Part shown: one piece after another, positions 5,236-34,132 of the stretch
How positions within the stretch are numbered: the stretch's first letter is position 1
Layout: each line of letters opens with the position of its first letter
Virus record (IMG/VR): IMGVR_UViG_3300046787_000353
Coordinates: 1-64,000 of that record
DNA from: a virus
Lineage: Duplodnaviria; Heunggongvirae; Uroviricota; Caudoviricetes
Strand: one strand, 5' to 3'
Length of the DNA stretch: 64,000 nucleotides
Program-made: the position numbers and the translations under genes
Notes under the pieces: model-generated
Told to the model about the DNA's origin: nothing
Database searches by the model: none
What the model saw: only the letters and a program-made list of their open reading frames with translations

Positions 5236-5448
5236 TTACCAACTATCTGTGTCAGTTAAGTCTAATTCTAACTTAGTTAAGTGATTATATACCTTAATAC
5301 CATCGCCCATTCCGAATGGAGTAACCGACCAAGTCATCAATCCATATTCACCATACAAATCTTTGATTTTGGCTATCCATTCATTATAACGTTTTTGCTG
5401 TGTATCCGTTAGTGATATCGTTATCACTTTGTTTTCTGTTTTCGGCAT
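5236..5448 (-). CDS. hypothetical protein (70 aa)
   Basis: ORF overlapping the 3' end of the cytidylyltransferase gene in another frame. Confidence 0.3.
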   Translation of the reverse strand: MPKTENKVITISLTDTQQKRYNEWIAKIKDLYGEYGLMTWSVTPFGMGDGIKVYNHLTKLELDLTDTDSW

Positions 5449-5851
5449 CTGCTACTCTTTTTCTTAATTCAGTTGTGCTATAATTGTGAGTTCGTTTATT
5501 GAAATAAAAATCCATATCTAAATTACTCCCAGTAAAGATTTTTGTTTCATATTCTTGTCCAAGTATTCTAATATCAATATCATTTGTCTGCAATATCGTT
5601 AGTAGCTCCTCTTCGGTTGTGTATGGTATGATTGCATCCACATACTTAACTGCATCCAATTGAATGAATCGTTCGTAATATGATTGGATTGGTTTATTCT
5701 TTTCAGGTCTGTCCACCGTTGGGTCAACTTGTAACCCACAAATTAAATAATCACATTGCGATTTAGCCTCTTCTAACATTAGAATGTGGCCTGTGTGTAG
5801 TAAATCAAATGTACTACAAGTAAATCCTATAATTTCAGTATTATTCATCAT
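5384..5851 (-). CDS. Cytidylyltransferase-family nucleotidyltransferase (TagD / RfaE domain II / NMNAT-like)
   Basis: N-terminal GFTCSTFDLLHTGH carries the (H/T)xGH motif of the nucleotidylyltransferase superfamily. The rest of the 155-aa protein resembles glycerol-3-phosphate cytidylyltransferase or ADP-heptose synthase domain II. Confidence 0.7.
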   Translation of the reverse strand: MMNNTEIIGFTCSTFDLLHTGHILMLEEAKSQCDYLICGLQVDPTVDRPEKNKPIQSYYERFIQLDAVKYVDAIIPYTTEEELLTILQTNDIDIRILGQEYETKIFTGSNLDMDFYFNKRTHNYSTTELRKRVADAENRKQSDNDITNGYTAKTL

Positions 5852-7601: not shown

Positions 7602-8225
7602 TTAGTTATAGTGAATAAAATTACAAATTGCGTAACGTTCACCATCCATAACCTTCGTTACTTCGTGTGGTATTTGATTTTTAGTATAGTCTAACACAAC
7701 CACATTCCCCAACTCCGGAATGACTTCTATCTTTTCGCCAGTATTGGTATCGGTTACAATTAAGCAACCACCATTGGCTTTATCATAGTTTTCGTTTAAG
7801 TAAATTAATATCCCAGCGATTCTACTTGCATCGCCACCATCGGTATGGTCTTTTATAAATGAACCCTTATTGAATAGTGTATATGAAAAGTTATTCTTAA
7901 TAAGATTGGTATCGATTGAATAGTATTTGCTGAATATCTTATTGAGTAATTCAATTACCTTTGTATGATTGAAATCAACGTGTAAGTTGAACCAAGACTG
8001 ATACACACTATCACCATACTCACTCAACCATTCATCTCGTTTAGCATTATATGTTTCATCGGTACGTTCATCCAATTCAAATATAAGTGGGAACTTATCA
8101 ACCGAATGTAGACAAGTATTGCCACCAGCGATACGTTTGTGAGCAGATTCAAACTCTTTTAGAAAGGATATATCTACTTCATCCAATTTGAATATATCAT
8201 AGCCAACCTTAGTAATATCAATCAT
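7602..8225 (-). CDS. 2OG-Fe(II) oxygenase superfamily protein (prolyl-4-hydroxylase / PhyH-like)
   Basis: HTDGGD (HxD) and IPHEV motifs with a downstream RYAI are typical of the double-stranded beta-helix 2OG oxygenases common in phages. Confidence 0.65.
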   Translation of the reverse strand: MIDITKVGYDIFKLDEVDISFLKEFESAHKRIAGGNTCLHSVDKFPLIFELDERTDETYNAKRDEWLSEYGDSVYQSWFNLHVDFNHTKVIELLNKIFSKYYSIDTNLIKNNFSYTLFNKGSFIKDHTDGGDASRIAGILIYLNENYDKANGGCLIVTDTNTGEKIEVIPELGNVVVLDYTKNQIPHEVTKVMDGERYAICNFIHYN

Positions 8226-8436
8226 TTTCTATTATTGTTGCTTCTTCAATTAAATTTACAAATAAGTATTCATTTGTTTGTCTTGAAATCAATATTTTTT
8301 CAGAACCAACCCATTGTTTTACAATATCAGCCGATTCACCCTCCAATTGAATTTTAAACTTATCAATTGGGAATGCTCTGATTACCTCATATAATTCATC
8401 ATCCTTTCTTAGTAGATTTGCTTTTCTCATTTCCAA
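8218..8436 (-). CDS. hypothetical protein (72 aa)
   Basis: Minus-strand ORF. Confidence 0.4.
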   Translation of the reverse strand: MEMRKANLLRKDDELYEVIRAFPIDKFKIQLEGESADIVKQWVGSEKILISRQTNEYLFVNLIEEATIIEND

Positions 8437-8768
8437 AAGATTTGAATTGTTAATATACTAACTGCTAATATCAAACATACTATTGTTTTAGATGTCATAG
8501 CTTCTCCGAAGATAAAGTAACTCATTGAAGCAAATACAATTATACCCTCACCAAATCCTATAAGACGGGATGGCCATATTTCACCATTAAAGTGCTCAAC
8601 AAATGCCTCTACTGATTTGATGTATAACCAAGCCATTGGGATTGACATTGCTAATAGGGCTAATGGATATCTCTGATACCATTGCCACTTTATATTACCT
8701 TGTAGTTGTAAAAATGTAAGGATTTGAGCTACGAGTCCATAGCCTAATCCTATAAATAACTTATTCAT
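8427..8768 (-). CDS. integral membrane protein (113 aa, 3-4 TM segments)
   Basis: Several hydrophobic segments. Confidence 0.5.
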   Translation of the reverse strand: MNKLFIGLGYGLVAQILTFLQLQGNIKWQWYQRYPLALLAMSIPMAWLYIKSVEAFVEHFNGEIWPSRLIGFGEGIIVFASMSYFIFGEAMTSKTIVCLILAVSILTIQIFWK

Positions 8769-8780
8769 ATTTTGTTTTTA

Positions 8781-8966
8781 TTAATCCAAATAATCGGATA
8801 CATCGATTCCATCGTTGCTAGCCTCATCATCATCGTAGATTTCATCTTCGATTTCTAACAAAGATTCCCAGATGTTATCGATTAGTGGGTTAGTAACTCC
8901 TTCATCTTCCATATCTTTCAAATCTTGTTTGATGGATTGTACGAGTTTTAAAATTGCTTGTTTCAT
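8781..8966 (-). CDS. small acidic protein (61 aa)
   Basis: Asp/Glu-rich minus-strand ORF. Confidence 0.35.
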   Translation of the reverse strand: MKQAILKLVQSIKQDLKDMEDEGVTNPLIDNIWESLLEIEDEIYDDDEASNDGIDVSDYLD

Positions 8967-8968: not shown

Positions 8969-10153
8969 TTAAAATTTATTGAAAATAGTTTCTAATGGTT
9001 TGTTATAAAAATTTTCAATAAATATAGTATTATTTTTTTTATTCCAAAAATACTCATAATGTAAATCGTGTAAATCCGTTTTACTCATTGTAAGTATATC
9101 TTTTAATCTACCTTTTATAGTAGCCATTCTTAATCTATCATCTTCTATTGTATCATAGTTGTGATTCCAATTCGGTAAGGCTACATCAAACCCAAACCTT
9201 TCAGTTAAATATTTGATTGTATTTGGCTTCGATACCATTATAAATGGTACATTCATTCGTAATGCTTTACAAGTCTTTTCACTAATGCTACACCAATCCA
9301 ATCGAGTATCCATAGTTGGCTTACAATCATTCCTATGATAGAAATGTGTTTCCGGTACTATCTCAAAGTATGTATTGATGTAATTCATAAAGTTGACATG
9401 CGATGGATAGTTGTGGTATTTCCACTTATCTGATATATCAAAGTCAATACTATTTGGAATACGTTCCAATACTTTAAAGTTTCTGAACTCAACCTCATTA
9501 TGTGGTGGTATGAACTCTCTATATAACTCCGGCTGAAATGATTCATCGGTAGAACTCCAAATGAAATCTTCATCCAGCCACCCATTCACATATAAGTAAT
9601 TCAGCAACTCTACTTTGTGGAATCTAATATGACCCGATAGAAACAATCCTTTAGATATCTTTTGAAACTTATTTGACCACCCATTCAAATCATTAAATTG
9701 ATTTATGAACTTTGGTATATACATTGATGTATGATATGCATGATGTTCAAAGAATAGGATATCATCTGATATAGGTTTCAAATTCTTATCTATGAAATAC
9801 AATTCCTTACTACATTCTTTTCTACAAAAATCATATAGCTCAATATTAATCTCTTGATTATCATAACACGATAGTTCAATGAATACATTTTTACATTCCA
9901 TTTGAAATACCTGCTTCAACTTATCCAAAAATACAGAATCTTCCATATCAATTGTACCGATTGAAAGTACTATTGATGTATTTACATCTACATTTTCAAA
10001 ATTAGTGTAATCAATTCTGAAATTCTTTTCAGAAAACGATGTGAGTAATTCCGTTAATTCATCGTATGGTTTTACATTCTGGTAATACCATTGGAATCCA
10101 CCCAATATTTTATCATCTCGTCTTAGTAACTTAACGAAGCAAACTTTTTTCAT
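8969..10153 (-). CDS. Putative glycosyltransferase, GT10 (alpha-1,3-fucosyltransferase)-like motif; paralog 1 of 4
   Basis: YFEIVPET ... SISEKTCKALRMNVPFIMV resembles the FxxFENS...YxTEK(L/I)xxAL...VPVV signature of GT10 enzymes. It shares this motif block with 10131..11219, 26730..27827 and 27969..28979. Confidence 0.45.
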   Translation of the reverse strand: MKKVCFVKLLRRDDKILGGFQWYYQNVKPYDELTELLTSFSEKNFRIDYTNFENVDVNTSIVLSIGTIDMEDSVFLDKLKQVFQMECKNVFIELSCYDNQEINIELYDFCRKECSKELYFIDKNLKPISDDILFFEHHAYHTSMYIPKFINQFNDLNGWSNKFQKISKGLFLSGHIRFHKVELLNYLYVNGWLDEDFIWSSTDESFQPELYREFIPPHNEVEFRNFKVLERIPNSIDFDISDKWKYHNYPSHVNFMNYINTYFEIVPETHFYHRNDCKPTMDTRLDWCSISEKTCKALRMNVPFIMVSKPNTIKYLTERFGFDVALPNWNHNYDTIEDDRLRMATIKGRLKDILTMSKTDLHDLHYEYFWNKKNNTIFIENFYNKPLETIFNKF

Positions 10154-11219
10154 ACTTATTTAACATTTCTGCTTTAAACAACCCAAACTGCTTTTTGTTG
10201 TAAAGATGTTTATCCTTTATTATATCTATATTGGATTGATATTTCTCTTTAATATTGTTAGAATATAATTGAGATATAATATGAGCCATTCTATCGGTAT
10301 CATCCACTATCATATCAAATTCATAATCAAATAACTCATCATACAATTTAAACCCCCACTCTTGTAATTTAGCAAATGAATTGGGTAAACAAAATGATAT
10401 GAATGGATATCCAAGAGATAATGGTTTGAATGTCTTTTCTGAAAAGTTTAAGAATTCCAAATCACCTTTGGCCGGATTAATAGAATGATAGTATATACTC
10501 TCACTAATAATTTCAGCATAATGGTTTGTATAGAAATCTAAGTTAGGTTTAACTCCTGCATTATTGAATATGTAATCAGTTCCATTACCTTTGTTATGAT
10601 ATATTGTATCATCTTGAATGTTGTAATCCAACATCTTTGGTAACTTACTATGTATATCCATCAATTGATACACATCTTTGAATTCATACGGAATCTCTTC
10701 TATTAGTAATTTACTATCAACTGCCCTCTGACTCCAATCTATATTTGATAACTCATTCAGTTTAAACATTTGTTCTAAGAATAGTAATCTATGATATCTA
10801 GCATGCCCTCCTAAATAAAAATAGTCATTGTGTTTACTATCATTCGATATAGTAAACTCCAATTCAGATACCCTAAACAATAGTGGGTCTATGTAGATAA
10901 AATTATCCTTCTCAACGGCATTTTTACTTATAACATACATCTCATTTGCACTCACCCATCTTAGAAAGTTATTCATATCCCAAAATCGTACTACAAAATC
11001 CGCAGCACTGAAATCTATAAATACTTTATCATATTCGGTGAAGTCTAAAGATAATACCAACTTATCCATTGCATAAGTTCCGGCATAAAATAGATGTAGA
11101 ACCTTCTTATCTGTATTGAATTTAGAATATAGATACTCTTTAGCAAAGTTTAACTCCACATAGGATTCATCCAAATCTACGATTTCATTATGTTTGTCGA
11201 ATATCTTAAATTCAATCAT
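10131..11219 (-). CDS. Putative glycosyltransferase, GT10-like motif; paralog 2 of 4
   Basis: YAEIISES ... NFSEKTFKPLSLGYPFISF; paralogous to 8969..10153. Confidence 0.45.
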   Translation of the reverse strand: MIEFKIFDKHNEIVDLDESYVELNFAKEYLYSKFNTDKKVLHLFYAGTYAMDKLVLSLDFTEYDKVFIDFSAADFVVRFWDMNNFLRWVSANEMYVISKNAVEKDNFIYIDPLLFRVSELEFTISNDSKHNDYFYLGGHARYHRLLFLEQMFKLNELSNIDWSQRAVDSKLLIEEIPYEFKDVYQLMDIHSKLPKMLDYNIQDDTIYHNKGNGTDYIFNNAGVKPNLDFYTNHYAEIISESIYYHSINPAKGDLEFLNFSEKTFKPLSLGYPFISFCLPNSFAKLQEWGFKLYDELFDYEFDMIVDDTDRMAHIISQLYSNNIKEKYQSNIDIIKDKHLYNKKQFGLFKAEMLNKYEKSLLR

Positions 11220-11512
11220 AGTAGTTGTTGTAAATCTCTAATCTTAGCACATTGTTCGTACTCTTCAATTGTTATAAAATAGTTCATTGCCTTATCCAAT
11301 GCAAGTCCAATGTGTTCCCTTTCTATTAAGAATACTACATTATCGGATATGTTTGATACCAGTATAGCTTGAATACTTTCTAAATCACTATTTAGTAATT
11401 TCTCACAATATCTAACTATCTCCGAATATATTACATATCGATGCTCTTTCAACCAAGCCTTAACTGATTGATTTCCTACATCGATATGTAATATTAGTGG
11501 GTTTTCATTCAT
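11216..11512 (-). CDS. hypothetical protein (98 aa)
   Basis: Minus-strand ORF. Confidence 0.45.
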   Translation of the reverse strand: MNENPLILHIDVGNQSVKAWLKEHRYVIYSEIVRYCEKLLNSDLESIQAILVSNISDNVVFLIEREHIGLALDKAMNYFITIEEYEQCAKIRDLQQLL

Positions 11513-12003
11513 ACAAATAAGTATTCCAAACCTTTAGTATTGGCACGTTTGAATACAATATCCATTTCAGATTTGGTTGTGGTTTGCTTACATTGTTTCT
11601 TATACCATTTGTATAAATCCTCCAATGTACCTTTACCACGTTGATGTTCTAATGATTTCTCCCAAAGGTCTTTACCAAACTCCTCCGCTAATTGTGCTTT
11701 AAGTGTCCAAAGAATTTTATTCTCATTCTTATGAGCTTCCTCTTCCAACTTCAATGCTCTCTTTCGGTATCTTTGTCTGGCTTCAACGGCAGCTTGAATA
11801 CGATTCTGCTCATCCGTACCCCCATAATTCTTATAAGCAGTTTCATAAGCCATTTGGGCAGTTTCTTTAAGACTTTCAACCTCACTAAACATATAAGAAT
11901 AATCAAAGTCACCATTTCGTATCTTTAGTAAAAGTGGGGCGTTAGCCTTTAAAGGTTTGGAAACTCTACCTTTGGTCCACCATCTGAATTTATTTTGCGC
12001 CAT
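11509..12003 (-). CDS. hypothetical basic coiled-coil protein (164 aa)
   Basis: Minus-strand ORF. Confidence 0.5.
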   Translation of the reverse strand: MAQNKFRWWTKGRVSKPLKANAPLLLKIRNGDFDYSYMFSEVESLKETAQMAYETAYKNYGGTDEQNRIQAAVEARQRYRKRALKLEEEAHKNENKILWTLKAQLAEEFGKDLWEKSLEHQRGKGTLEDLYKWYKKQCKQTTTKSEMDIVFKRANTKGLEYLFV

Positions 12004-13775: not shown

Positions 13776-14306
13776 TTATTTCAAAATAATTCGTTCGGTT
13801 TTTATAATATTATTATATCGAACTACAACAGTCATAGTATCACCTCGCATCTCCCATTTGGGTGCTATTACGGTATTGATACTACCATCTACTGAATTGT
13901 AGGATGATTTGTTTATAGTAGGAACTAATGCATTTACATTACTTATTAATGGTGGTAACTTAACTACCATAAACTGACCCGTATATTCATTTAGATACGT
14001 TTTTGTTATAGTGGCAATGGTATCACCTTGTCTTAGATTCCAATATAAGTTACTCTCCCATTCCACCTTAGCTCTCGGTGCCGTTGGAACTCTATCATTG
14101 ATTCTAATTGAACCACTAATGGTATGAATGTTTTGAGTTTCTTTTGAATACAATGTAAAATAATAATACCCATTCACATCTTTGGGTAAACGGGCATCTA
14201 TACTCAATTCAACTGATTCTTTTTGTGGGTATATATCTTCGGGTGTGCAACTGAACATTCCGAATGATAATATCAATAGTAGTATGTATTTCATATTATG
14301 CAACAT
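13776..14306 (-). CDS. putative lipoprotein (176 aa)
   Basis: Signal peptide with lipobox-like LSFGMFSC. Confidence 0.5.
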   Translation of the reverse strand: MLHNMKYILLLILSFGMFSCTPEDIYPQKESVELSIDARLPKDVNGYYYFTLYSKETQNIHTISGSIRINDRVPTAPRAKVEWESNLYWNLRQGDTIATITKTYLNEYTGQFMVVKLPPLISNVNALVPTINKSSYNSVDGSINTVIAPKWEMRGDTMTVVVRYNNIIKTERIILK

Positions 14307-18755: not shown

Positions 18756-19325
18756 CTACTTATTTAAAAATCCTATTACTTTATCTTTAATTCCACATTG
18801 CTTTATCCCCTCATTACTTCTAGCCGTTAATACAAAGTTATCAAGTCCATAACCTTGATTGTATTCCGGACTCATATTAAGGTCATCTATTGCAACCCAT
18901 TGCTCTACGTTGGGATTCAATTCCAAATATTGTTGTATTTCCAATATTCTTTTTTTACTATACCACCCTTTCCAACTGAATAGTCCATCTGTGGTTTTAT
19001 CAAAATCACCTAAGTTTGGTGTGAATGCAATTGGTCTTTTACTAATACCTTGCTCAATGTAGTAATCACCCAACTCTTCTAATGTAGCGTGTAGTTTCCA
19101 ATCTGAACTAACAACTATTTCAGCTCCAGTTTCATCGAGTATCTCATTCAATATCTTAATAGCCTTTACATCGAAATTATCCAATCTTACATTAACAGGT
19201 GCTTCTTTTAGAATTGATGATGATTCGGGATTTTCTGAACGATATTTACTCCACTTCTTACCTCTACTTCCCCAATTGTTGGAGAGGCAAATTACACCAT
19301 CGTTATCTAAAAATATTGCCTTCAT
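18756..19325 (-). CDS. HAD-superfamily hydrolase-like protein
   Basis: N-terminal IFLDNDGV carries the DxDG(T/V) HAD motif I. Confidence 0.5.
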   Translation of the reverse strand: MKAIFLDNDGVICLSNNWGSRGKKWSKYRSENPESSSILKEAPVNVRLDNFDVKAIKILNEILDETGAEIVVSSDWKLHATLEELGDYYIEQGISKRPIAFTPNLGDFDKTTDGLFSWKGWYSKKRILEIQQYLELNPNVEQWVAIDDLNMSPEYNQGYGLDNFVLTARSNEGIKQCGIKDKVIGFLNK

Positions 19326-19653: not shown

Positions 19654-20577
19654 TTATTTCATTCCTTTATATAATTGTGGTGCAGTTCCGTAAACAGGTA
19701 ACTTACCATCCCATTTGTTAATCCATTCTAATTGTAATAACATAGGTGTAATTGTTCTTTGTTTCAAACTATTTGCTTCTGCTTCTGCTTTAGCTGCTGT
19801 TAACATCGCCTGAGCGTTACCATTTGCGGTTGCTACTTTAATCTTCGCCTGTGCTTCAGCCGTTTTAACTTCGTTCTCAGCTCTTAATGCTGCCTGAACT
19901 GCGTTGTTCTTAGCTTCAATTGATTTCTTAAATGTTTCAGGGTAAATCAAATTAGATGTGAACTGATTGATTACAAATCCCTCCTTTAATAATTGACCAT
20001 CTAATAATCTACGAACTTCAATTTCAAATACTGCTCTATTACTAATCAATTCATCAGCCGTATATTTGTTAGTTGCCAATCTGAATGCATCATACACTGC
20101 GGTTTTTAAGAATCCCTCTTCGATATCTTCCAAAGGTCTACGATACTTACTAAAGATTGCAGGAACTTTATCTCTCTGAACCGAATAATTCATAATAGGT
20201 GATACTGAAAATTCAGAACCATCTTTACTATTTACTACGAATGAATTCTCATTTTTGTATTCTTTATGCTGAATGAATGTAGGGAACTCATAAACTGTGG
20301 TTGTAAATGGATTATAGAATACCATTCCGGTAACTGCTACAACATCATCTACGCCTTTGTTATCACCATACTGATTAACTTTTACACCCACATGCCCTGC
20401 ATCAATTCGTTCGCAAGAGTTAAATACGAATGTTGATACTAATAAAAATGCTACTACGCTTAAAATAATTCTCATAATTGTTTTTGTTTGTTTTGTTTTT
20501 TCTAATTTATTTTGTTCAATTTGCTCATCCGATAATCGGTTTCCCCATCTATCGTAACTATCACTATACATTCCCAT
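19654..20577 (-). CDS. SPFH / band-7 (prohibitin/HflKC-like) domain membrane protein
   Basis: An N-terminal TM anchor is followed by an SPFH-like core (HVGVKVNQYGDNKGV...) and an Ala/Glu-rich coiled-coil tail AEAQAKIKVATANGNAQAMLTAAKAEAEA. Confidence 0.7.
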   Translation of the reverse strand: MGMYSDSYDRWGNRLSDEQIEQNKLEKTKQTKTIMRIILSVVAFLLVSTFVFNSCERIDAGHVGVKVNQYGDNKGVDDVVAVTGMVFYNPFTTTVYEFPTFIQHKEYKNENSFVVNSKDGSEFSVSPIMNYSVQRDKVPAIFSKYRRPLEDIEEGFLKTAVYDAFRLATNKYTADELISNRAVFEIEVRRLLDGQLLKEGFVINQFTSNLIYPETFKKSIEAKNNAVQAALRAENEVKTAEAQAKIKVATANGNAQAMLTAAKAEAEANSLKQRTITPMLLQLEWINKWDGKLPVYGTAPQLYKGMK

Positions 20578-20580
20578 AGG

Positions 20581-20913
20581 TTATTGGTTTTTGGATTTAG
20601 GATTATGCGGAGGTAACGGAAATCCATCTTTTTTTATTTTCTTAGTGTATTTACGTTTTGTCTTTGGTTTTGGAATATAATCCAATTCCGTTTCACCAAA
20701 TTCTTTTTGAGCTTCCTCTTTTGAAATTGGTTTAAATAATGCATCAACGTAAACATACGCTGCTAATCCTTCAATAAATCCCAATATACCTCCGAATATA
20801 TTTATAATCGTATTCGATGCTGTGAGTGCTGGTGCAACTACAAATGTAAATACTAATAGGATTGAACCCAATACCAAAAATGGTGTGATTATTCTTTTAA
20901 TTCGTTTTATCAT
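20581..20913 (-). CDS. membrane protein (110 aa, 2-3 TM segments)
   Basis: Hydrophobic segments. Confidence 0.5.
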   Translation of the reverse strand: MIKRIKRIITPFLVLGSILLVFTFVVAPALTASNTIINIFGGILGFIEGLAAYVYVDALFKPISKEEAQKEFGETELDYIPKPKTKRKYTKKIKKDGFPLPPHNPKSKNQ

Positions 20914-21146
20914 AATATGATTTTTTTAGTTATATTTAAAATTGTTTGTTCATCTTCTTTGGATAATCTCCATTTGTTGTTGAATAGTTTGTGAACTTGC
21001 TCATTCCAATCATCATCTACACTTTTATCACTATCATCCTTTTTAGCTATAAAACCATCTTCATATAGTTCATCTACCAATTGTTGCTTTTCTCTATCAG
21101 ACATGCTCCATAAGATGTCCTCAATTTCAATATCAATACTTGCCAT
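20910..21146 (-). CDS. hypothetical acidic protein (78 aa)
   Basis: Minus-strand ORF. Confidence 0.4.
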   Translation of the reverse strand: MASIDIEIEDILWSMSDREKQQLVDELYEDGFIAKKDDSDKSVDDDWNEQVHKLFNNKWRLSKEDEQTILNITKKIIL

Positions 21147-21156
21147 AATTTATAAT

Positions 21157-21351
21157 TTATTTTTGATTGTTAAATCCAGTTATCTGCATTCTGGGTTCGA
21201 AGTTAACGAATTGTTTTACTTCATCTTCTCTATTGTGGATTATAGCTGCTGTCATGTGCAACAATTCCAAATCCCACTCATCGGCTACCCATCTTTTAAA
21301 TAATTTGGTTAGAATCTTTGATTCGATTTTTTGTAATAATTTTTGTATCAT
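21157..21351 (-). CDS. hypothetical protein (64 aa)
   Basis: Minus-strand ORF. Confidence 0.35.
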   Translation of the reverse strand: MIQKLLQKIESKILTKLFKRWVADEWDLELLHMTAAIIHNREDEVKQFVNFEPRMQITGFNNQK

Positions 21352-21368
21352 AGTTAATAAGTTTTAGA

Positions 21369-21827
21369 TTACCAACTTGCGTAATACTCAAATTCATCAG
21401 CCCCATCATCTTCTAAGATTTCAGTCAAATACTTAATTGTATTGGCAACATCTTTGAAATACCACTCATCGTATTCTGTTCCCCCGAAGAAGAACCCACT
21501 TGCTGATGGTAATAAGGTAGGTGCTAATGAATTATCTTCAATAACTTTGTTACACACATCTAACAATTCTTCCAACTTTTCTCTACTAACAAACGAATTC
21601 TGGCAGTTATCAATCCCATCCTGCACATTTTGAACAAACCAATTGTGAATTTGATTTGCTTTTCTCCAATAGGCAACTTCCTCAACGATGTATCTAATAC
21701 GTTCTGGTTTGATTGTTTTATCAATCTCACCACCGGTTTTTACCTCTACTTCTGTTCGGTATTCAGGCTTTACCCATTCACCTTGTCTAACATAATTCTT
21801 CTTGTACAAATAACTGTCTAATCCCAT
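21369..21827 (-). CDS. hypothetical protein (152 aa)
   Basis: Minus-strand ORF with a promoter motif upstream. Confidence 0.5.
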   Translation of the reverse strand: MGLDSYLYKKNYVRQGEWVKPEYRTEVEVKTGGEIDKTIKPERIRYIVEEVAYWRKANQIHNWFVQNVQDGIDNCQNSFVSREKLEELLDVCNKVIEDNSLAPTLLPSASGFFFGGTEYDEWYFKDVANTIKYLTEILEDDGADEFEYYASW

Positions 21828-21868
21828 AATTTTAAATTTTAAAGTTTAAGTTTCTTAATTTTTATACT

Positions 21869-21900
21869 GCAATATACGAAATTCTATCGATATTGCCAAA
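21869..21900 (-). promoter_or_regulatory. promoter, class 1 (TTTGGCAATATC ... TATATTGC)
   Basis: Minus-strand TTTGGCAATATCGATAGAATTTCG-TATATTGC sits about 40 nt upstream of the ATG at 21827. Confidence 0.5.
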
Positions 21901-21910
21901 TATTTGAGTG

Positions 21911-21948
21911 GTTTTTTTTAAAAAAGAAAGGAGGAAATTTCTTCCTCC
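21911..21948 (-). terminator. rho-independent terminator after 21974..23203
   Basis: ggaggaa/ttcctcc hairpin plus a U-run on the minus strand. Confidence 0.6.
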
Positions 21949-21973
21949 CTCTCAATCAACTATTAAACTATTA

Positions 21974-23203
21974 CTACCACACAATAGTATCTTCGGTCAC
22001 ATCATCTTTTGCTTCGTTAAAAAGTTTAGATTCTGCTTCATCATTTTTAATATACTTTTGAACCAACTGCTTCATAAATACTCTCTCTGAATCCAATCCT
22101 CCATCATTAGAGAAGTAAGGTAAGATAGCGATATCAGCTGCTTCTAACAATGTAAATCCATCGTAAATCAAACCGGCTGCTTCTACGTTAGTACGAGTAG
22201 ATACCGTAGTTGATACCTTGCTGGCATCAGTCTTAATCAACTCACGAGTAGTTGAAGCGATTTCAGCCAAAGCGTTTAATGAATACTCATCAGCTTCTGG
22301 ATAGATAAGTTTCAACAAATCAAACTCTGATTGTTTATCTAACAAATCCATCTCAATAGTTACAAATCTGTCCATCATAGCACGGTCCATAATACGAGTT
22401 GATGTATATTCATTACCGATGTTAGCCGTAGCGATGAAAGTAACTCCACTTGCTACACTTACAATTGGAGAACCCTCAGCCTCATCCAAACGTAAGTAAC
22501 GTTGCCCCTGGTCTAACACAGTCATTAAGATATTCCATGCTTCTGGGTGAGCTCTACTCAACTCATCTAATAAGATGATAGCGTTAGGAGTTTTGATTGC
22601 TTTAACGAATGCTGATTCACTAAAGAAAGTTCCTTTATCTTTATCGAAGTGAGTGTTACCGATTAAGGTTGCTCTCGGGTCTTGCGTTGCTCCTAAGTTG
22701 AAGTAGAAATCAGGTCGGTTAAGTGATTTAACCAATGATTGAGCCGCCAATGTTTTACCACAACCAGTTGGTCCACACATCATAATGTTTTTACCACGAA
22801 CTGCTGAACGAAGTAAATACTTCCACTTCAATGGTTCGATGAACAATCCTTTAGGTTTCAACTCCTGTCCGTTTTGGTGGATGAAATCTTTAAGAGCCTC
22901 ATGTGTATCAAATGATTCGGTAACAGAATCAGCGGTGTTTTCGGAAGTTGGTTGAGCCAATGTTTTGAACTCATCCATCTCCACTAATTTGTAGGTTAAT
23001 GCCCCACTTTTACCAACGTAACCTCTAATTGCTTTACCTTCAGCTTCTGCTGTTTTCATACGAGCTTTAGTAACTCCGGCTACTTTGGCGTAAGTTTTAT
23101 CATCCGTAGTTAACATAGCGAATGAACGGCCAATCTTAATAACTTTGTAAATTTCATTTGTGAAACCTACGTTTAAATCTTTTTTTGTTTTGGTAGTACT
23201 CAT
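21974..23203 (-). CDS. MoxR-family AAA+ ATPase (CbbQ/NirQ/NorQ/GvpN-like; CobS-like in phages)
   Basis: Walker A MMCGPTGCGKT, a Walker B LLDELSRA motif, and ATANIGNEY...RIMDRAMMDRF. Confidence 0.85.
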   Translation of the reverse strand: MSTTKTKKDLNVGFTNEIYKVIKIGRSFAMLTTDDKTYAKVAGVTKARMKTAEAEGKAIRGYVGKSGALTYKLVEMDEFKTLAQPTSENTADSVTESFDTHEALKDFIHQNGQELKPKGLFIEPLKWKYLLRSAVRGKNIMMCGPTGCGKTLAAQSLVKSLNRPDFYFNLGATQDPRATLIGNTHFDKDKGTFFSESAFVKAIKTPNAIILLDELSRAHPEAWNILMTVLDQGQRYLRLDEAEGSPIVSVASGVTFIATANIGNEYTSTRIMDRAMMDRFVTIEMDLLDKQSEFDLLKLIYPEADEYSLNALAEIASTTRELIKTDASKVSTTVSTRTNVEAAGLIYDGFTLLEAADIAILPYFSNDGGLDSERVFMKQLVQKYIKNDEAESKLFNEAKDDVTEDTIVW

Positions 23204-23540
23204 AATAGTATCTGTTTTAAAGTTTAATATGTCTCTTAATTTTATTCTGCAATATACGAATTAATTTCCAATTGCACAAGCTTTTTGTGAATTATTTTTA
23301 TAAAATTTATTCATTTCCTTTTCAGCCTGATTCAATAGTTTTTGTGATTCTTTCTTATTCCCTTTGAATAATAACTCCATCGCTTTGATGGTCAATTGTC
23401 TGTGTTTTGGTAGTTTGTTCATCTCTTATCTTTTATTACTTCGTAAAGATAGTAAATATTGTCCGTATTGCCAAATATTTTAGCAAATTTTAACAAAATT
23501 TTAACAAAAAAGTCGTAAGTAATTGATATAGAAAGAGTTA

Positions 23541-23565
23541 TGAAAAGGGAGGGTTTTCCCTCCCA
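23541..23565 (-). terminator. rho-independent terminator after 23586..25871
   Basis: gggaggg/ccctccc hairpin. Confidence 0.55.
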
Positions 23566-23585
23566 ATCCATAGGGCTTTCCGAGC

Positions 23586-25871
23586 CTAAGATTTTCTTAA
23601 AAACATCTCATTCATTGTTTTGGCAACTTCGAACATATTCTCCACGTTAACACTTTTTGCATCACGTCCGTAACATTGTTCGAATAATCTCCAAGCAGAT
23701 GTGTTTTTTACATCAGTATATTCACTAATAAAATATGATAATACATTAATACCAGCCGATTGCATCTTCTTAATTTGCTTATTAGTATGTTTAGCGGCGG
23801 CAGGACCTGTATATTGAATACCATCTCCACCATTACTAATTGAATAACAAGGTTCACCATCGGAGAAGTTCAAGAAGTATGAATCAGAATCATTAGTAGC
23901 CGGTATCAATTGCTTCTGAATTGCTTCGAAACACAAACCTTCCGGTGTTGTATTATTTGCTCTTAGGATACCCATATAACGAGCGAACGTTCTAAAGTTA
24001 CCTTTACGAGAATCATATACAACAGCGATGTAAGGTAAAGAACGAGAACCACTATCGGTAGAACGAATGGATACCTGAACGTTGATGTTACGAGCCATTT
24101 CACAAGCCTTAACAATAGCCACAGTCGATGTGATTGCTTTCTTAATCTTAGAACCACTCATTGAACCAGAGTAGTCAATTGAGATATGAAGATTGGCTTT
24201 CTTATATTGGTCAACTTCTTTAGTGAAGAAAACGTTCTCGTTATCATATCCAAGCGAAGCAACCATTCTACCATCAATCTTACCTTTAGTAAGGCGAGAG
24301 TAAACTGTTTCTCTACTTTCGTTACGAACTTGCAACTTCTTACCTAATATAGTTCCTAATGTGATACCTCTACGAACCTCATCTTCTGCCCACTTTTGTG
24401 GTTCACCACTTTTCCAATCTACCGAACTGAATGGAAAATCTTTATCTGAAATCATTTTATCGGTAAGGTTCTTAACTACAATACAATCAACACCTTTGTT
24501 GTGTCCGTATCCATCTGGGTTGTAATCATTACCAACACGAACTAATTCAGTATCCGAAGCGGAGATGTTTTCTAACTTCTCAATTTCAGTTTTAGAAACT
24601 TGCTTTTTCTTAATCTTACCATCTAAAAACTCTTTTTGCTTTTTGATTTTGTTATCAAGTTGTTTCTTTTGGTTACCTGTCATTGATTGTTTACCTTTAA
24701 CATCACCCTTAGCCTCACCAGCGGGAGCTTCTGATGAATCTGATTCAGAAGGCGTTCCTTCCACATCACCGGCATCCATATTGATACCACTTCCATTACC
24801 ATCGCCATCGGATTCTCCATTAGATTCTCCACTACCTTCACCATCTTCACTTTCGGTGGTTTCACCATCCGATTCACCATCGCCTTTATCTTTTTGCTTT
24901 TGGCCGCCAGATGCGTCTGGCAATTCAATATGATTTAAGATTTCGGTAACAACATCAATTGAAAGATTAAATGCATCTTCCGTTGATTTCAAACGTTCGA
25001 TGTTACTTAAATTGATTAATCGATAAATTGCTCTCAAACCTTTTAATTTAGAAAGGTCAGTTTCTTCATTGTGAAGGTTGATGATTCTAAACATATAAGA
25101 ATCGATAGTTTCATCGGTATATTCATCCGAAGCGATTCCCTTAGTAATCATCTTATCATTAAAGTAATGGTCATACATCGATGAATAGTAATCTCTATAA
25201 CCAGGTGCCGAATTGTAGATGTATTGGTCAATACGTCTGTCCTCAATCCAGTTGGTTAATTGTCCAACTAATGTTTCAATCTCTTTATTGATGGTGATTT
25301 TTGAACCAATCTTACCTGATTTCAAAAACATCTCAGCGAATCCAGCTTTGTATTTTAAACCATCAATTTTTTGTAAAATAGCGTTATCAATATAGTCATC
25401 ACTATATGGGATTGGATATCCATTCTCAATTGCTTCTTTGTTTTGAATAGCCGCATTACTTCTAAGATATCGAATGGTATCGGTAATACTACTCATTTCA
25501 GATAACAAACTAAAATCGGATAACACAATGTGTGAACCCTCATGCAATGCTAAACCAACGGAAACATCAAAGTTATCATCCACATCAGCGGAAAGGATAA
25601 CTCTCTTACCATCAGTCATTGAATCTGATTTGGTAGCGAATGTAACCGGAATACTTTTTTGTGTAACAATTTGAACGAAATTGGAGATAGCTCTCCTCGT
25701 TGCTGATAACTTATACAAGTCATTTGTTTTCTTAAATGCCGATAACTTATCTTCATCTAAATCACTATACTTGTCTAAGTAATCGTATGATGTATTATAC
25801 TCATCATACCAATATGAACTAGCGGATTTCTTTTGAACACCACCACTTTTTAATCTGTTGTACCAACTCAT
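23586..25871 (-). CDS. von Willebrand factor A (vWA) domain protein with acidic low-complexity tract (CobT-like partner of the MoxR ATPase)
   Basis: MIDAS motif DYSGSMSG (DxSxS). Central region DKGDGESDGETTESEDGEGSGESNGESDGDGNGSG. Adjacent to the AAA+ MoxR gene. Confidence 0.8.
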   Translation of the reverse strand: MSWYNRLKSGGVQKKSASSYWYDEYNTSYDYLDKYSDLDEDKLSAFKKTNDLYKLSATRRAISNFVQIVTQKSIPVTFATKSDSMTDGKRVILSADVDDNFDVSVGLALHEGSHIVLSDFSLLSEMSSITDTIRYLRSNAAIQNKEAIENGYPIPYSDDYIDNAILQKIDGLKYKAGFAEMFLKSGKIGSKITINKEIETLVGQLTNWIEDRRIDQYIYNSAPGYRDYYSSMYDHYFNDKMITKGIASDEYTDETIDSYMFRIINLHNEETDLSKLKGLRAIYRLINLSNIERLKSTEDAFNLSIDVVTEILNHIELPDASGGQKQKDKGDGESDGETTESEDGEGSGESNGESDGDGNGSGINMDAGDVEGTPSESDSSEAPAGEAKGDVKGKQSMTGNQKKQLDNKIKKQKEFLDGKIKKKQVSKTEIEKLENISASDTELVRVGNDYNPDGYGHNKGVDCIVVKNLTDKMISDKDFPFSSVDWKSGEPQKWAEDEVRRGITLGTILGKKLQVRNESRETVYSRLTKGKIDGRMVASLGYDNENVFFTKEVDQYKKANLHISIDYSGSMSGSKIKKAITSTVAIVKACEMARNINVQVSIRSTDSGSRSLPYIAVVYDSRKGNFRTFARYMGILRANNTTPEGLCFEAIQKQLIPATNDSDSYFLNFSDGEPCYSISNGGDGIQYTGPAAAKHTNKQIKKMQSAGINVLSYFISEYTDVKNTSAWRLFEQCYGRDAKSVNVENMFEVAKTMNEMFLRKS

Positions 25872-26729: not shown

Positions 26730-27827
26730 TCAATTAGTTAGCAAATTCACCATCCAGCCGTATCCACCTACCCCATATTCCTTATTTGCCTCACCGGTTA
26801 TCTTTATAACTAAATTTCGATTATGGTTAAGTTTACGTTGGGTTTCAATACTATTGTAATAATCCACATTCATATTGTCAAAAAACTCATCATCCGAATT
26901 AAAGAATGTTTCAAATCCCAATTCTTTTAATTTGGTTATCAACTTACAATGCTTTGGCATGGTATGTATAACGTTCATATAAAACATTGGAAATATTGTT
27001 TTTGTGAATATAGATGCGAAATTGTATCTTGGATTATCCATATTATCCGTAAATGCGTAGCATGCTTCTATTACGATGTTAAACATACTATCATTGTGCA
27101 TTTCTATAAGCCGTTCTCTTTGAGCCATTTGTAAAGAACCCACATCGAACTTTTCAGTTTCCGGTATAATTGATAACTCTCTAAGATAATCAAAATCGAT
27201 ATCACCGGCCAACTTAATCTCTTCCTCCGAATACCAATCCCTCATACCCATCAATCCCTCTTTGGATTTATCATTAAACCCATTCACATTGTGGTAGCTT
27301 ATAATGTTATTACTATTATATAGTAGATTACGTTTATGCAATTCCCATACGATATAATCCTTTCCTAAGTTTCGGTTGAATGCGCAGAATTTTAATAACG
27401 TATTTCGTTCACCCACATTTACCTCCATTGCTTTATGGTTGGTATGTTTCAGTAAATCTATACATTTTATAAAATTAACTCCAATAGGTCTATAATGTAT
27501 TAAATCTGAATTATATTTTTTAGATAAAATATCCTCATATCCAAATGTAAAGGTATCAAATAGGATTAGCTTATTAGTTGCTATGCAATGTTCAATGAAT
27601 TCATACATATAATCAATACGAATATGTTCTAACGTAGAAAATATAACTATATTATATCCATTCGTTTTTGATATTAGGTCTTGATTGAAATGTTTAATCC
27701 CTCCAACCCCATCACCATTATGTAGATATAGTGGTATGCCGGTTTTTCTACCAAATACACATATATCATCTCGGGTGATACCCAATCGTTCACTATAAAA
27801 TGTTTCATTAAAATTTGAAATCTTCAT
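26730..27827 (-). CDS. Putative glycosyltransferase, GT10-like motif; paralog 3 of 4
   Basis: Shares the C-terminal motif block with the other three paralogs (IFTKTIFPMFYMNV...LGFETF). Confidence 0.4.
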   Translation of the reverse strand: MKISNFNETFYSERLGITRDDICVFGRKTGIPLYLHNGDGVGGIKHFNQDLISKTNGYNIVIFSTLEHIRIDYMYEFIEHCIATNKLILFDTFTFGYEDILSKKYNSDLIHYRPIGVNFIKCIDLLKHTNHKAMEVNVGERNTLLKFCAFNRNLGKDYIVWELHKRNLLYNSNNIISYHNVNGFNDKSKEGLMGMRDWYSEEEIKLAGDIDFDYLRELSIIPETEKFDVGSLQMAQRERLIEMHNDSMFNIVIEACYAFTDNMDNPRYNFASIFTKTIFPMFYMNVIHTMPKHCKLITKLKELGFETFFNSDDEFFDNMNVDYYNSIETQRKLNHNRNLVIKITGEANKEYGVGGYGWMVNLLTN

Positions 27828-27968
27828 CAGCTTGAAGTCCTTTTGGGATTTGTGTTTGGGGTTTATTTCCTACCACTGTTATTTTAGTAGTTGGCTGTTG
27901 GTTACCACTTTGTAGTAATTCCTTTATCTCCTCCAATAGCTTGATTATAGTTTCAGCGTGCTGGTCTG

Positions 27969-28979
27969 TCATATTATATTATGCTTTTTAAATACATTTA
28001 CCGATAACATCTTATCAATTACAGCTAAGTTGTTTGTTTGAATTATCTCATTGGAATCATAACATTCAATCAATGAATCAATAATAGCTTTGTTGGTATA
28101 TTCCTTTATGAATTTAGAATTTGCGAACCAAAACCCAGCATCATGCAAATCTTTCATGTGCTCCGGTGAAGTTATCATCATCATATTGATATCCAATAAT
28201 TCCATCCAAGCCCCCTTTAATATCTTCTCCGATGTGAAGTAAGGTAGATTGGGTTGAAAGTTAAAATGTGTTTCCGATGTGATGAAGTAATTACATTCTC
28301 TGAAATCAAATGGTGTAGAGAAATGTGGATTCTTTAACCCAATCGATAACTTATACAAAGCCTCTCTTGGATATGAAAAAGATATACTATCTGATTTACT
28401 ATCAAAGTAATCTATATAATCATATCTCCAATTCCTAATATTTTCTCTATCTTGTTTCCAAGAACTCAATCCATAATATCCAATTTTGTATTTTTTAGGA
28501 TATGTCACCCTATCCGAATATGTTCTGTCTATATGACAAGAACCTATTAGAAAATTGAAGTAATGGAATGATAGTACCATATCATACACATAATTTGGAT
28601 GATTTGCCAATTCAGGCATATACGTTGAAGTATATACTTTGATTCCCAAATCCAATACAATCTTCCAATTGTTATTTACATCGAACATCCCCTCGCCATA
28701 GTGCCACAATATGAAGTATTTCTTAGAATGGTCTAACTTAGACCAAACTCCCAATACCTCCTCATTTGCTGAATGGAATTGTAATACGTTGGCTAAATCA
28801 AGCTCAATGATATCGTACCCATTCGTTTTTAGCTTACTCTCCGATGAATCAAATACAAATGTATGTTCATTGGTTTTAAATGTATAACGAGTGCCTTTGA
28901 ATGTGGATTCGATTATCTCATCCTTATAAGATTCTTCGGCTAAAAAGTATCCAATTTGGGTTGTAAATTTTATTATCAT
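27969..28979 (-). CDS. Putative glycosyltransferase, GT10-like motif; paralog 4 of 4
   Basis: FITSETHF...YFTSEKILKGAW matches the CFENS...YVTEKILDAY motif pair of bacterial alpha-1,3-fucosyltransferases. Confidence 0.45.
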   Translation of the reverse strand: MIIKFTTQIGYFLAEESYKDEIIESTFKGTRYTFKTNEHTFVFDSSESKLKTNGYDIIELDLANVLQFHSANEEVLGVWSKLDHSKKYFILWHYGEGMFDVNNNWKIVLDLGIKVYTSTYMPELANHPNYVYDMVLSFHYFNFLIGSCHIDRTYSDRVTYPKKYKIGYYGLSSWKQDRENIRNWRYDYIDYFDSKSDSISFSYPREALYKLSIGLKNPHFSTPFDFRECNYFITSETHFNFQPNLPYFTSEKILKGAWMELLDINMMMITSPEHMKDLHDAGFWFANSKFIKEYTNKAIIDSLIECYDSNEIIQTNNLAVIDKMLSVNVFKKHNII

Positions 28980-29236
28980 TCAGTTTCGATAATTAAATAT
29001 TTTTCAAACCTTTTGGCTTCTTTTGGGTTTACTTCCCTAAAATATTCCAATGTAATCTCATATCTGCCTAATTCGTTTTTTGAATTAAACAATTCGATAT
29101 CCAATGAATCTATCTTTGCTTTATATTCTTTATCACTAACTCTCAATTTTTCCAATTCTTTATTCTGTCCGTAGATAGTATAAAGTAATGCCAGAACTGT
29201 CCCAGCCGTTAATAACGGATTGAAGTATTTTTTCAT
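28976..29236 (-). CDS. membrane-anchored coiled-coil protein (86 aa)
   Basis: Hydrophobic N-terminal segment. Confidence 0.45.
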   Translation of the reverse strand: MKKYFNPLLTAGTVLALLYTIYGQNKELEKLRVSDKEYKAKIDSLDIELFNSKNELGRYEITLEYFREVNPKEAKRFEKYLIIETE

Positions 29237-29888: not shown

Positions 29889-30293
29889 TTAAACCGTATG
29901 TTCTATTTGCACTCTTACACAATTTTGTGGTAATCTGTGTATGTGTCTGTAATTATTTATATATCCCATCATATTTGCTGAACCAATTGCGTTAGCTGAA
30001 TGTACCACTACATCTACTACACGTTGCCCATCTAACCATTGATTCACCAACCACTTCACACAATCCATTCCAGTCTTTTCTAAAATGTTATCGTAGTTTA
30101 ATTCGTAGTTGTGATATACATTCTTATGCCATTCAGCCATAGCGGTATCCCCCAAATCGTGGTCTAATGAAATCAATTCGATATTATCCAACCCAATGTA
30201 TTGAATTGTAGATACGAATTGGTCATAGTTCCTAACTATTGTCCAACCATCTCCTACTGGAGTTCTTACATCATCTAAATATATTCTTGTCAT
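29889..30293 (-). CDS. hypothetical protein (134 aa)
   Basis: Minus-strand ORF. Confidence 0.5.
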   Translation of the reverse strand: MTRIYLDDVRTPVGDGWTIVRNYDQFVSTIQYIGLDNIELISLDHDLGDTAMAEWHKNVYHNYELNYDNILEKTGMDCVKWLVNQWLDGQRVVDVVVHSANAIGSANMMGYINNYRHIHRLPQNCVRVQIEHTV

Positions 30294-30299
30294 AACTCT

Positions 30300-31470: not shown

Positions 31471-31471
31471 G

Positions 31472-31557
31472 CGGAAGGAGTAGGATTCGAACCCACGGTA
31501 CCTTTCAGTACACCTGATTTCAAGTCAGGCGCGATAGACCAACTCTGCCATCCTTCC
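31472..31557 (-). tRNA. tRNA-Ser (anticodon TGA), type II with long variable arm
   Basis: Acceptor GGAAGGA/TCCTTCC, anticodon loop CTTGAAA, T-arm GTGGG-TTCGAAT-CCCAC. Confidence 0.8.
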
Positions 31558-33937: not shown

Positions 33938-34132
33938 TTAATCTTCATCTTCAATTTCATCGGCAAATAGTTCATACTGAACTTCATCCGGTATATGTGA
34001 ATACCCATATACATCTAAATTGTAATCATTTGCCCAATCTTCTTTAGCCATTGCCTTTGCTTCTTCTTCTGAATTAGCTTCATAAATGTTATCAACATAG
34101 ATTATGATTTTGCCTGTAACACTATATTCCAT
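33938..34132 (-). CDS. small acidic protein (64 aa)
   Basis: Minus-strand ORF. Confidence 0.35.
   Translation of the reverse strand: MEYSVTGKIIIYVDNIYEANSEEEAKAMAKEDWANDYNLDVYGYSHIPDEVQYELFADEIEDED

Follow-up and report, generated by a model that had tools for sequence, protein, structure and literature searches.

Four open reading frames (ORFs) in the window (the whole 64-kb stretch of phage DNA analysed), here called A, B, C and D, likely code for divergent proteins of one large, unclassified family of GT-B-fold transferases that is almost confined to viruses, with a protein or envelope glycan, rather than DNA, as the likely target. The first-pass annotation had singled out these four ORFs (336-394 aa) as putative glycosyltransferases, and all four ORFs are present at the coordinates given, on the minus strand:

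8969..10153, minus strand, protein A: 394 aa, predicted GT-B fold, glycosyltransferase-like
10131..11219, minus strand, protein B: 362 aa, paralog of A along its full length
26730..27827, minus strand, protein C: 365 aa, divergent member with a homologous C-terminal domain
27969..28979, minus strand, protein D: 336 aa, predicted GT-B fold, linked via an E-T ... SEK ... GF block

The stop of B overlaps the start of A by 23 nt, and the B-then-A tandem is kept in 5 IMG/VR contigs. The C gene was found in one relative (L015) and is missing from the syntenic site of another, the 245 kb relative L014, IMGVR_UViG_3300043410_001471.

A profile of A and B retrieved 4,334 cluster representatives at E≤1e-3, and the motif F[ST]EK[TI][FY][KR]P...HPF[IV] is nearly universal in this superfamily. 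Scanning contigs for the motif, with a tighter sequence subset sharing a conserved stretch, yielded 272 relatives in IMG/VR viral contigs vs. 1 in 185,579 prokaryotic genomes. Matches in BFVD come from uncultured phages and giant viruses, and one of these relatives is fused to a UDP-Glc dehydrogenase domain. The N-terminal domain is variable (73 of 172 domain hits begin after profile position 120), and two modules occur in tandem in 24 of 148 representatives. Direct scans of A to D against Pfam, PHROGs and NCBIfam gave no meaningful match; the same is true of a PHROGs scan of 60 distant members, and PDB sequence-profile searches with either the A/B alignment or the 60 distant members recovered nothing relevant. 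GenBank phages were without a match by blastn/tblastn (A+B DNA; A, C and D; a typical superfamily member, P0129), with tblastn of A, C and D covering 50,697 phage records. The proposal that these proteins form an undescribed (sub)family is thus upheld, since there are thousands of members, yet they lie outside Pfam, NCBIfam, PHROGs and the PDB sequences.

Predicted models were examined for two of the four proteins, A and D. Both consist of a pair of Rossmann-like alpha/beta domains separated by a cleft, i.e. a GT-B fold, and their structural matches are all glycosyltransferases; no non-GT family matches the four proteins or their relatives. The earlier glycosyltransferase assignment therefore withstood the comparison of both fold and family. 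The retaining GT4 type (GlgM 6TVP, PimA, WaaG and others) is among the nearest known GT-B systems and differs in sequence: the family has neither a Glycos_transf_1 Pfam match nor the EX7E motif, and five E. coli GT4 sequences were at background in profile comparisons (hhalign P 0.23-0.67). Giant-virus glycan glycosyltransferases have been described (chlorovirus B736L, 3OY2; the rhamnosyltransferase family of PBCV-1 A064R domain 2, residues 213-438, and A071R, PMC9614988), and no PBCV-1 protein was present among the best 50 BFVD matches.

In other viruses, family members neighbour UDP-Glc/GDP-Man dehydrogenases, epimerase/dehydratases, sulfotransferases, a hexapeptide acyltransferase, a carbamoyltransferase and radical-SAM enzymes. 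In a census of 77 viral loci, which was seeded with a narrow motif, leans towards one subfamily and counts some contigs redundantly, sugar-nucleotide enzymes were found at 46 loci and two or more family copies at 52. In the phage lineage studied here, the 64-kb window, taken from a 98-kb contig, and the lineage loci (of a genome that may reach ~245 kb) contain no recognisable sugar-nucleotide synthesis gene except a loosely linked cytidylyltransferase.

These neighbourhoods bear on whether the substrate is DNA, which the first-pass annotation had offered, in the form of DNA hypermodification, as one possibility beside glycosylation of virion or host surface structures. In the work of Pyle et al., DNA glycosyltransferases of the GT-B type are often clustered with ThyA-like genes. 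No ThyA-like, TET/5mYOX or DNA methyltransferase gene occurs in the window or in eight lineage loci; at the 77 other viral loci with the family, none has a thymidylate-synthase-like gene adjoining it, and there is no TET-like or DNA methyltransferase gene. The T4 DNA beta- and alpha-glucosyltransferases (1C3J, 1Y6F; GT63/GT72), which glycosylate hydroxymethylated bases to evade restriction, have no sequence similarity to A, C or D, nor did tblastn find similarity to any other GenBank phage. Unlike the T4 enzymes, the family loci examined are without hydroxymethyl-pyrimidine pathway genes and are polysaccharide-like in their surroundings, and the tandem two-module forms suggest polymer synthesis. 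Glycosylation of phage DNA bases in the manner of T4 is therefore unlikely, and as a leading option DNA hypermodification finds no support. The four proteins probably build a glycan instead, and the sugar-nucleotide enzymes at 46 of the 77 loci lend indirect support to their predicted transfer of a sugar from a nucleotide-activated donor.

A further reading concerns the chemistry of the transferred group. Transferases of non-glycosyl groups, too, use the GT-B fold. The four proteins could transfer groups other than simple sugars, e.g. as TagF-like polyol-phosphate enzymes (drawing on CDP-glycerol or CDP-ribitol from a neighbouring cytidylyltransferase) or as Kdo/sialyl-type or pyruvyl transferases; enzymes of these kinds are known to have a GT-B fold. 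A TagD/RfaE-II-like nucleotidyltransferase gene does lie 3 kb from A:

5384..5851, minus strand, cytidylyltransferase-like protein: 155 aa, PF01467 E=3e-15

Among NCBIfam models it matches glycerol-3-phosphate cytidylyltransferase (1.5e-19) and RfaE domain II (1.7e-17) best, vs. only ~3e-3 for NMN adenylyltransferase models, and a homolog is present at 3 of the 77 census loci. The gene shows no synteny in relatives. The protein is a candidate donor-activating enzyme, loosely associated. Taken together, we regard transfer of such non-simple-sugar groups as quite unlikely, and retain transfer of sugars to a protein or envelope glycan as the preferred reading.

The C-terminal motifs had also been likened to those of GT10 alpha-1,3-fucosyltransferases, and a weak but specific parallel does exist. 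In profile comparisons, the four GT10 sequences ranked 1-4 among 17 GT controls, always with their TEK aligned to the family [ST]EK, and were the only GT sequences of the 17 to align in a consistent register; their P values were just 0.004-0.05, and GT10 structures are not the nearest structural neighbours. The best match (hhalign P=0.0044, probability 7.8%) covers 26 columns on the TEK helix and scores 25.2, barely over the shuffled maximum of 22.9. Like the family, GT10 enzymes (H. pylori FucT, 2NZW/5ZOI; human FUT9, 8D0O; plant FUT11/FUT13) have a GT-B fold, and the motifs of the C-terminal domains are co-linear: N-x-R follows the first strand, E-x closes a later one, and a helix beginning with [ST]-E-K leads to a P-[VF]-[VI] strand. 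The family differs by donor-domain insertions of about 45 and 10-14 residues and by an unrelated N-domain sequence.

Membership in GT10 itself was not borne out. PF00852 matched neither A to D (E≤1) nor the 60 distant members or 32 relatives of B, C and D (E≤10). The GT10 signature, F-E-N-[ST] followed ~8 residues on by Y-[VI]-T-E-K, does not occur in A to D; here E-[TS] (E-A in C) is followed by [ST]EK (FTK in C) after 9 (D), 16 (C and B) or 19 (A) residues, which agrees with the earlier remark that the motif spacing departs from canonical GT10. Also, genes for making GDP-fucose are absent from the surroundings in this lineage, and the family's neighbours elsewhere in the census are mostly UDP-Glc/GDP-Man dehydrogenase-like (36 ORFs), with few that are Fcl-like (8 ORFs). 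Despite the shared register, we thus consider it very unlikely that A to D are true, highly diverged GT10 alpha-1,3/4-fucosyltransferases using GDP-fucose. The 'FucT' of Bacteroidetes O-glycosylation (PMC8698959) is a GT2/GT-A enzyme and unrelated.

A and B are homologous along their full length (BLASTP 25.5% identity across 372 aa, E=5e-19). By BLASTP, C and D show no similarity to A, B or each other, and direct comparison of the C and D profiles gave nothing (E=0.51), so the description of all four as paralogs holds in full for A and B and extends to C and D only via the wider superfamily, C through the broad profile and D through a 62-column block together with its fold. Using hhalign, the C family matches the broad superfamily profile with 96.1% probability (E=3.4e-9, 201 columns, score 73.0; reversed alignment 23.0, column-shuffled ≤20.8) and the D family with 67% (E=5.2e-5, 62 columns, score 42.6; reversed 17.5, shuffled ≤20.9). 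A chance motif joining unrelated proteins would account for these BLASTP and C-vs-D results and for the failure of the A/B HMM to connect C or D to A/B, but is effectively refuted by profile links far above the reversed and shuffled controls, by the single fold common to the A and D models, by the C-family HMM, which ranks A as the second-best match in the window, and by the columns that stay invariant when 32 B-, C- and D-family sequences are aligned together (only the Glu of E[TS], the Lys of [ST]EK, and GF). The shared C-terminal block is therefore real. Its motifs map as follows:

9185..9634, minus strand, A motifs: GHIRFHK (aa 174-180), YFEIVPET (262-269), SISEKTCK (289-296), PFIM (303-306), FGFD (320-323)
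10347..10808, minus strand, B motifs: GHARYHR, YAEIISES, NFSEKTFK, PFIS, WGFK
26910..27380, minus strand, C motifs, degenerate: FNRNLGK, MFNIVIEA, SIFTKTIF, VIHT, LGFE
28128..28475, minus strand, D motifs: YGLSSWK, YFITSET, FTSEKILK, AGFW

The literal pattern first written for the block fits A and B only, A with I-S-E-K in place of [FS][ST]EK, and C and D depart from it. C reads FNIVIEA, with no first Glu and with Ala at the [ST] position, followed by F-T-K instead of SEK; D keeps the second Glu alone (YFITSET); both are without P[FV]I. Residues R177, E264, E268, S291, E292, K293, P303 and F304 (A numbering) are invariant in the A+B alignment. The corresponding sets are N151, R152, E254, K276, P280, G304 and F305 within the C family, and T234, E236, H238, T249, E251, K252, G282 and F283 within the D family.

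From these motifs and the two-domain architecture predicted for each protein (both domains Rossmann-like), a mechanism can be proposed. The conserved C-terminal domain would most likely hold the nucleotide-activated sugar, by way of an Arg/His loop after the first strand, the strand ending in E-[TS], the [ST]-E-K helix, the P-F-[IV] strand and G-F. If these residues act like their GT10 counterparts, the diphosphate may be contacted by the Arg and Lys, and hydroxyls of the ribose or the sugar by the Glu residues. Acceptor binding and the catalytic base are expected of the variable N-terminal domain, with D98 and E136 as candidates for the base in A. Since the N-domains differ among the four proteins and the genes form two strings with translational coupling, the enzymes probably differ in the sugar they add or in the acceptor they use while assembling a phage-directed glycan, the target of which would be a protein or envelope glycan and not DNA. 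C, which is without the otherwise invariant Glu of [ST]EK, may take a different donor or be catalytically impaired.

More tentatively, the superfamily as a whole could be a virus-specific glycosyltransferase family of at least ~4,300 clusters, with which phages and giant viruses make glycans of their own, in many cases derived from uronic acids and modified by radical-SAM enzymes or sulfation, on virions or the infected cell surface. Such a system would be a phage counterpart of giant-virus fibril/capsid glycosylation, with donor chemistry derived distantly from the GT10 scaffold. Going by their description, the 'moraphages' (PMC12619734), aquatic jumbo phages of Flavobacteriia with genomes of 200-307 kb and four core putative glycosyltransferase orthogroups, resemble the lineage studied here, in which one relative reaches 245 kb and the lipoprotein signals are of Bacteroidota style. 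If the enzymes are active, a large glycosyltransferase family essentially confined to viruses is invisible to standard annotation, and a multi-enzyme glycan capacity that is now scored as hypothetical exists in many uncultured phages, jumbo phages of aquatic Bacteroidota among them. Such glycans could serve as a shield for virions, modify receptors or remodel the host surface, and active enzymes would be new catalysts for glycoengineering. The family also offers concrete, testable conserved residues (R177, E268, E292 and K293 in A).

Several small genes and one oxygenase gene adjoin the two transferase pairs:

7602..8225, minus strand, 2OG-Fe(II) oxygenase (PF13640): present in this phage alone, as an insertion at the end of the A/B module
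8218..8966, minus strand, three small genes (61 aa, 113 aa and 72 aa): downstream of A, beside B-A in 5 of 5 relatives
11216..12003, minus strand, two small genes (164 aa and 98 aa): upstream of B, with ATGA overlaps, syntenic in 5 of 5 relatives
27808..27972, minus strand, 54-aa ORF: bridges D and C, with an ATGA overlap with the D stop and a 20-nt overlap with the C start
28976..29236, minus strand, 86-aa ORF: immediately precedes D, with an ATGA overlap, and has a hydrophobic segment at its N-terminus; kept in L014

The oxygenase was considered as a functional partner (hydroxylation followed by glycosylation) and rejected: none of the five syntenic relatives (L001-L005) carries it, so it is not a conserved partner. 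A PF13640 protein also adjoins a member of the transferase family at another locus, L007. Serglycin Pfam matches in the window are an artefact of the GS linkers used to join proteins. The three small genes downstream of A have no Pfam or NCBIfam match and are 47-69% identical in syntenic relatives. The 113-aa protein encoded by one of them (8427-8768) has four hydrophobic segments by hydropathy; a flippase role was discarded, as ArnE, ArnF and GtrA scored no better than their reversed sequences. The 54-aa ORF that follows D is kept in both L014 and L015.

Four ORFs of the window encode putative glycosyltransferases, and all four are present exactly where the first-pass annotation had placed them:

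8969-10153, minus strand: A, 394 aa
10131-11219, minus strand: B, 362 aa
26730-27827, minus strand: C, 365 aa
27969-28979, minus strand: D, 336 aa

The best-supported reading makes A-D diverged members of a GT-B enzyme family that is unclassified and dominated by viruses. Pairwise alignment, as proposed in the first-pass annotation, gave one pair with significant BLASTP similarity, A-B (25.5% identity over 372 aa, E = 5e-19), and an HMM built from A, B and the homologs of A found neither C nor D in the window proteome. The proposed C-terminal motif block (E[TS] ... [ST]EK ... P[FV]I ... GF) is matched literally by A and B, while C (FNIVIEA ... SIFTK ... VIH ... GF) and D (YFITSET ... FTSEK ... 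GF) deviate from it. For A, C and D, homolog searches yielded 34, 16 and 23 relatives, respectively, every one metagenomic, unannotated and without a Pfam domain. Direct family-to-family hhalign gave marginal results, with E values of 0.006 (A/B vs. C), 0.0034 (A/B vs. D) and 0.51 (C vs. D); both A/B alignments still landed on the motif block. Against a broad profile of the superfamily, the C family aligned with 96.1% probability (E = 3.4e-9, 201 columns, score 73.0) and the D family with 67% (E = 5.2e-5, 62 columns, score 42.6). Both links are confirmed because the scores are far above those of reversed alignments (C, 23.0; D, 17.5) and column-shuffled controls (C, ≤20.8; D, ≤20.9). The next-best match of the C-family HMM in the window is A. 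When 32 sequences of the B, C and D families are aligned together, invariance is confined to GF, the Glu of E[TS] and the Lys of [ST]EK. Thus, the shared block is real, but the four ORFs, originally described as paralogs, are so at the superfamily level only.

The broad profile was built from 148 of the 4,334 proteins recovered (E ≤ 1e-3) when the A/B profile was searched against 1.84 billion cluster representatives. Tandem two-module proteins make up 24 of these 148, and 73 of 172 domain hits are limited to the C-terminal half of the profile; the partial hits and tandem forms are consistent with a donor domain that is conserved and an acceptor domain that varies. A motif scan of prokaryotes (one genome for each of 185,579 species) confirmed a single relative, on a Bdellovibrionales MAG contig, and a like-for-like scan of the viral contigs in IMG/VR gave 272 confirmed relatives, whose contigs range from 4 to 363 kb. 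In BFVD, the top structural matches come from uncultured Caudovirales phages and from giant viruses (Mimivirus LCMiAC02, E = 2e-14; Indivirus; Fadolivirus; Bodo saltans virus). These proteins are uncharacterised, and one of them carries a fused UDP-glucose/GDP-mannose dehydrogenase domain. Pfam, NCBIfam and PHROGs gave no match to A, B, C or D; known families were likewise unmatched by 32 B/C/D relatives and, even at E ≤ 10, by 60 distant superfamily members. Profile searches of PDB sequences found nothing, and tblastn detected no relatives in GenBank phages. The earlier suggestion of an undescribed (sub)family therefore holds for the libraries searched. GT-B glycosyltransferases are a familiar kind of phage enzyme; the novelty lies in the family, which is essentially viral, numbers thousands of proteins and has no entry in the curated libraries searched. 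Domain 2 of PBCV-1 A064R (PMC9614988) is a possible characterised relative. Four core putative glycosyltransferase orthogroups are described for aquatic jumbo phages (PMC12619734).

The motif block had been likened to that of GT10 (alpha-1,3-fucosyltransferases). Genuine GT10 sequences were taken from the PDB (HpFucT, AtFUT11, mango FUT13 and human FUT9), with HpFucT numbering reproducing the published donor-binding residues E95, R195, N240, E249 and K250. Comparison of the superfamily profile with the four-sequence GT10 profile (hhalign P = 0.0044, probability 7.8%, 26 columns) aligned the superfamily ‘fiSEKTfKpI..hPFI’ on the GT10 ‘YVTEK......vPv’; the score of 25.2 exceeds the maximum of 40 column-shuffled controls (22.9) by a slight margin. 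In a relaxed alignment the whole donor domain is co-linear, the superfamily N..R corresponding to N..R195 of GT10, E-T to E239-N240 and SEK to T248-E249-K250. In comparisons with 17 single sequences, ranks 1-4 (P 0.006-0.053) go to the four GT10 proteins, all in one common register, while the thirteen controls (five GT4, four GT9, two GT8, one GT30 and a pyruvyltransferase) have P ≥ 0.056 at scattered positions; the random-ranking probability is 1/2380, with the GT10 sequences mutually non-independent. These profile comparisons suggest a weak but specific GT10 affinity of the superfamily donor site. GT10 membership is unsupported, but a GT10-like donor site is plausible.

The window has a GC content of 34% and carries nearly all genes on one strand. 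The B and A genes, which overlap by 23 nt, lie in a string (164 aa, 98 aa, B, A, 61 aa, a 113-aa four-TM protein, 72 aa) whose members either overlap at ATGA or are separated by short gaps; the string is kept in 5/5 related IMG/VR contigs. Neighbouring genes include:

8427-8768: 113-aa protein, four hydrophobic segments, directly downstream of A in 5/5 relatives (57-69% identity)
7602-8225: PF13640 2OG-Fe(II) oxygenase, translationally coupled to the end of the A/B module
5384-5851: TagD/RfaE-II-like cytidylyltransferase

The 113-aa protein has no family match, and a flippase identity was rejected on comparison with ArnE, ArnF and GtrA, to which it shows no similarity. The oxygenase is specific to this phage, being missing from all five syntenic relatives; another PF13640 oxygenase adjoins a distant family member on an unrelated viral contig (L007, 3689-4273), with no phmmer-detectable similarity between the two. 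The cytidylyltransferase could activate a donor, but it lacks synteny in relatives. The second string (86 aa, D, 54 aa, C) is flanked by a cREC/metallophosphoesterase pair and a CobT-like/MoxR pair. A 76 kb contig (L015) has the arrangement D-56aa-C, and a 245 kb relative (L014) retains A, B and D, with C missing at the D-C site. In both, a gene of the Methyltransf_24/CmcI type (sugar O-methyltransferase-like) lies ~3-4 kb upstream of D (L014, 5329-6006; L015, 1746-2423); the window has no counterpart.

No recognisable sugar-nucleotide genes were found in the loci of this lineage. Viral contigs carrying distant superfamily members encode:

L006, 2407-17177: UDP-Glc/GDP-Man dehydrogenase, five or six radical-SAM genes (one B12-binding), carbamoyltransferase
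L010, 352-12598: UDP-Glc/GDP-Man dehydrogenase, five or six radical-SAM genes (one B12-binding)
L007: two epimerase/dehydratases, the 2OG-Fe(II) oxygenase
L009: epimerase, hexapeptide acyltransferase, five sulfotransferases

In L006 and L010 a tandem two-module member sits amid the dehydrogenase and radical-SAM genes. In a census that compared 77 viral loci (887 kb; narrow seeding motif, some contigs redundant) with reference enzymes, 46 loci had sugar-nucleotide enzymes, 45 had radical-SAM or carbamoyltransferase genes and 52 had at least two family copies, with 36 dehydrogenase-like and 65 radical-SAM-like ORFs in total. The recurrent dehydrogenase and radical-SAM cluster suggests an unusual, heavily tailored viral glycan. 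Glycosylation of phage DNA by A-D, raised at first pass as hypermodification, is disfavoured because these contexts are polysaccharide-type and hydroxymethylation genes were not found: the window, which covers part of the genome, holds no thymidylate-synthase-like, TET-like or DNA methyltransferase gene, and ThyA homologs occur in 0/77 census loci. For A-D as family glycosyltransferases, the conserved C-domain would use an Arg loop, E-[TS] and [ST]-E-K to bind a nucleotide-activated donor; the differing N-domains would select different acceptors, and A-D would thereby take part in building a glycan. What the data show is the GT-B fold (for A and D), the homology, the distribution and the gene contexts, whereas the parts assigned to single residues, the activity and the product are inferred.

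Besides the A-D modules, the window encodes RNA-repair/tRNA functions, NAD salvage and a SAM lyase:

18756-19325: HAD_SAK_2 (RNA-repair/tRNA-maintenance set, as are the next five)
29889-31100: cREC_REC and metallophosphoesterase
37564-38706: RNA ligase
38932-39657: polyA-polymerase/CCA-adding head domain
39733-40116: AAA_33 kinase
40312-40974: second metallophosphoesterase
34122-34589: nucleoside 2-deoxyribosyltransferase-like protein (NAD-salvage cluster, 34122-37456, as are the next two)
34591-36129: NAMPT
36593-37456: ribose-phosphate diphosphokinase-like protein
48889-49872: 327-aa protein, S-adenosylmethionine lyase domain and DUF3293, likely anti-restriction
55524-56117: DNA/RNA non-specific endonuclease (PF01223), N-terminal signal peptide
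60847-63144: 765-aa protein, C-type lectin and cohesin domains, possibly a carbohydrate-binding virion or adhesion protein

There are 25 tRNA genes (42113-48643 and 31471-31557), all on the minus strand and covering most amino acids, 24 of them in one ~6.5 kb array interspersed with small ORFs. Region 19654-25871 encodes three proteins that are kept in relatives (44-86% identity): one of the SPFH/Band-7 type, a MoxR-type AAA ATPase, and a CobT/vWA-like protein of 761 aa whose linker is acidic and of low complexity. Among GenBank phages, the ATPase comes closest to proteins of Microcystis phage Mel-JY01 (55%) and of a 484 kb uncultured phage. Lipoprotein-type signal peptides, recognised by eye in translations, occur on small proteins at 60142-60847, 51650-51907 and 13776-14306, the Cys being followed by S/T and acidic residues (e.g. 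...GFGGCSKDD, ...LLASCTENN, ...FSCTPED). They resemble the Bacteroidota surface-lipoprotein export type, which hints at a Bacteroidota host.
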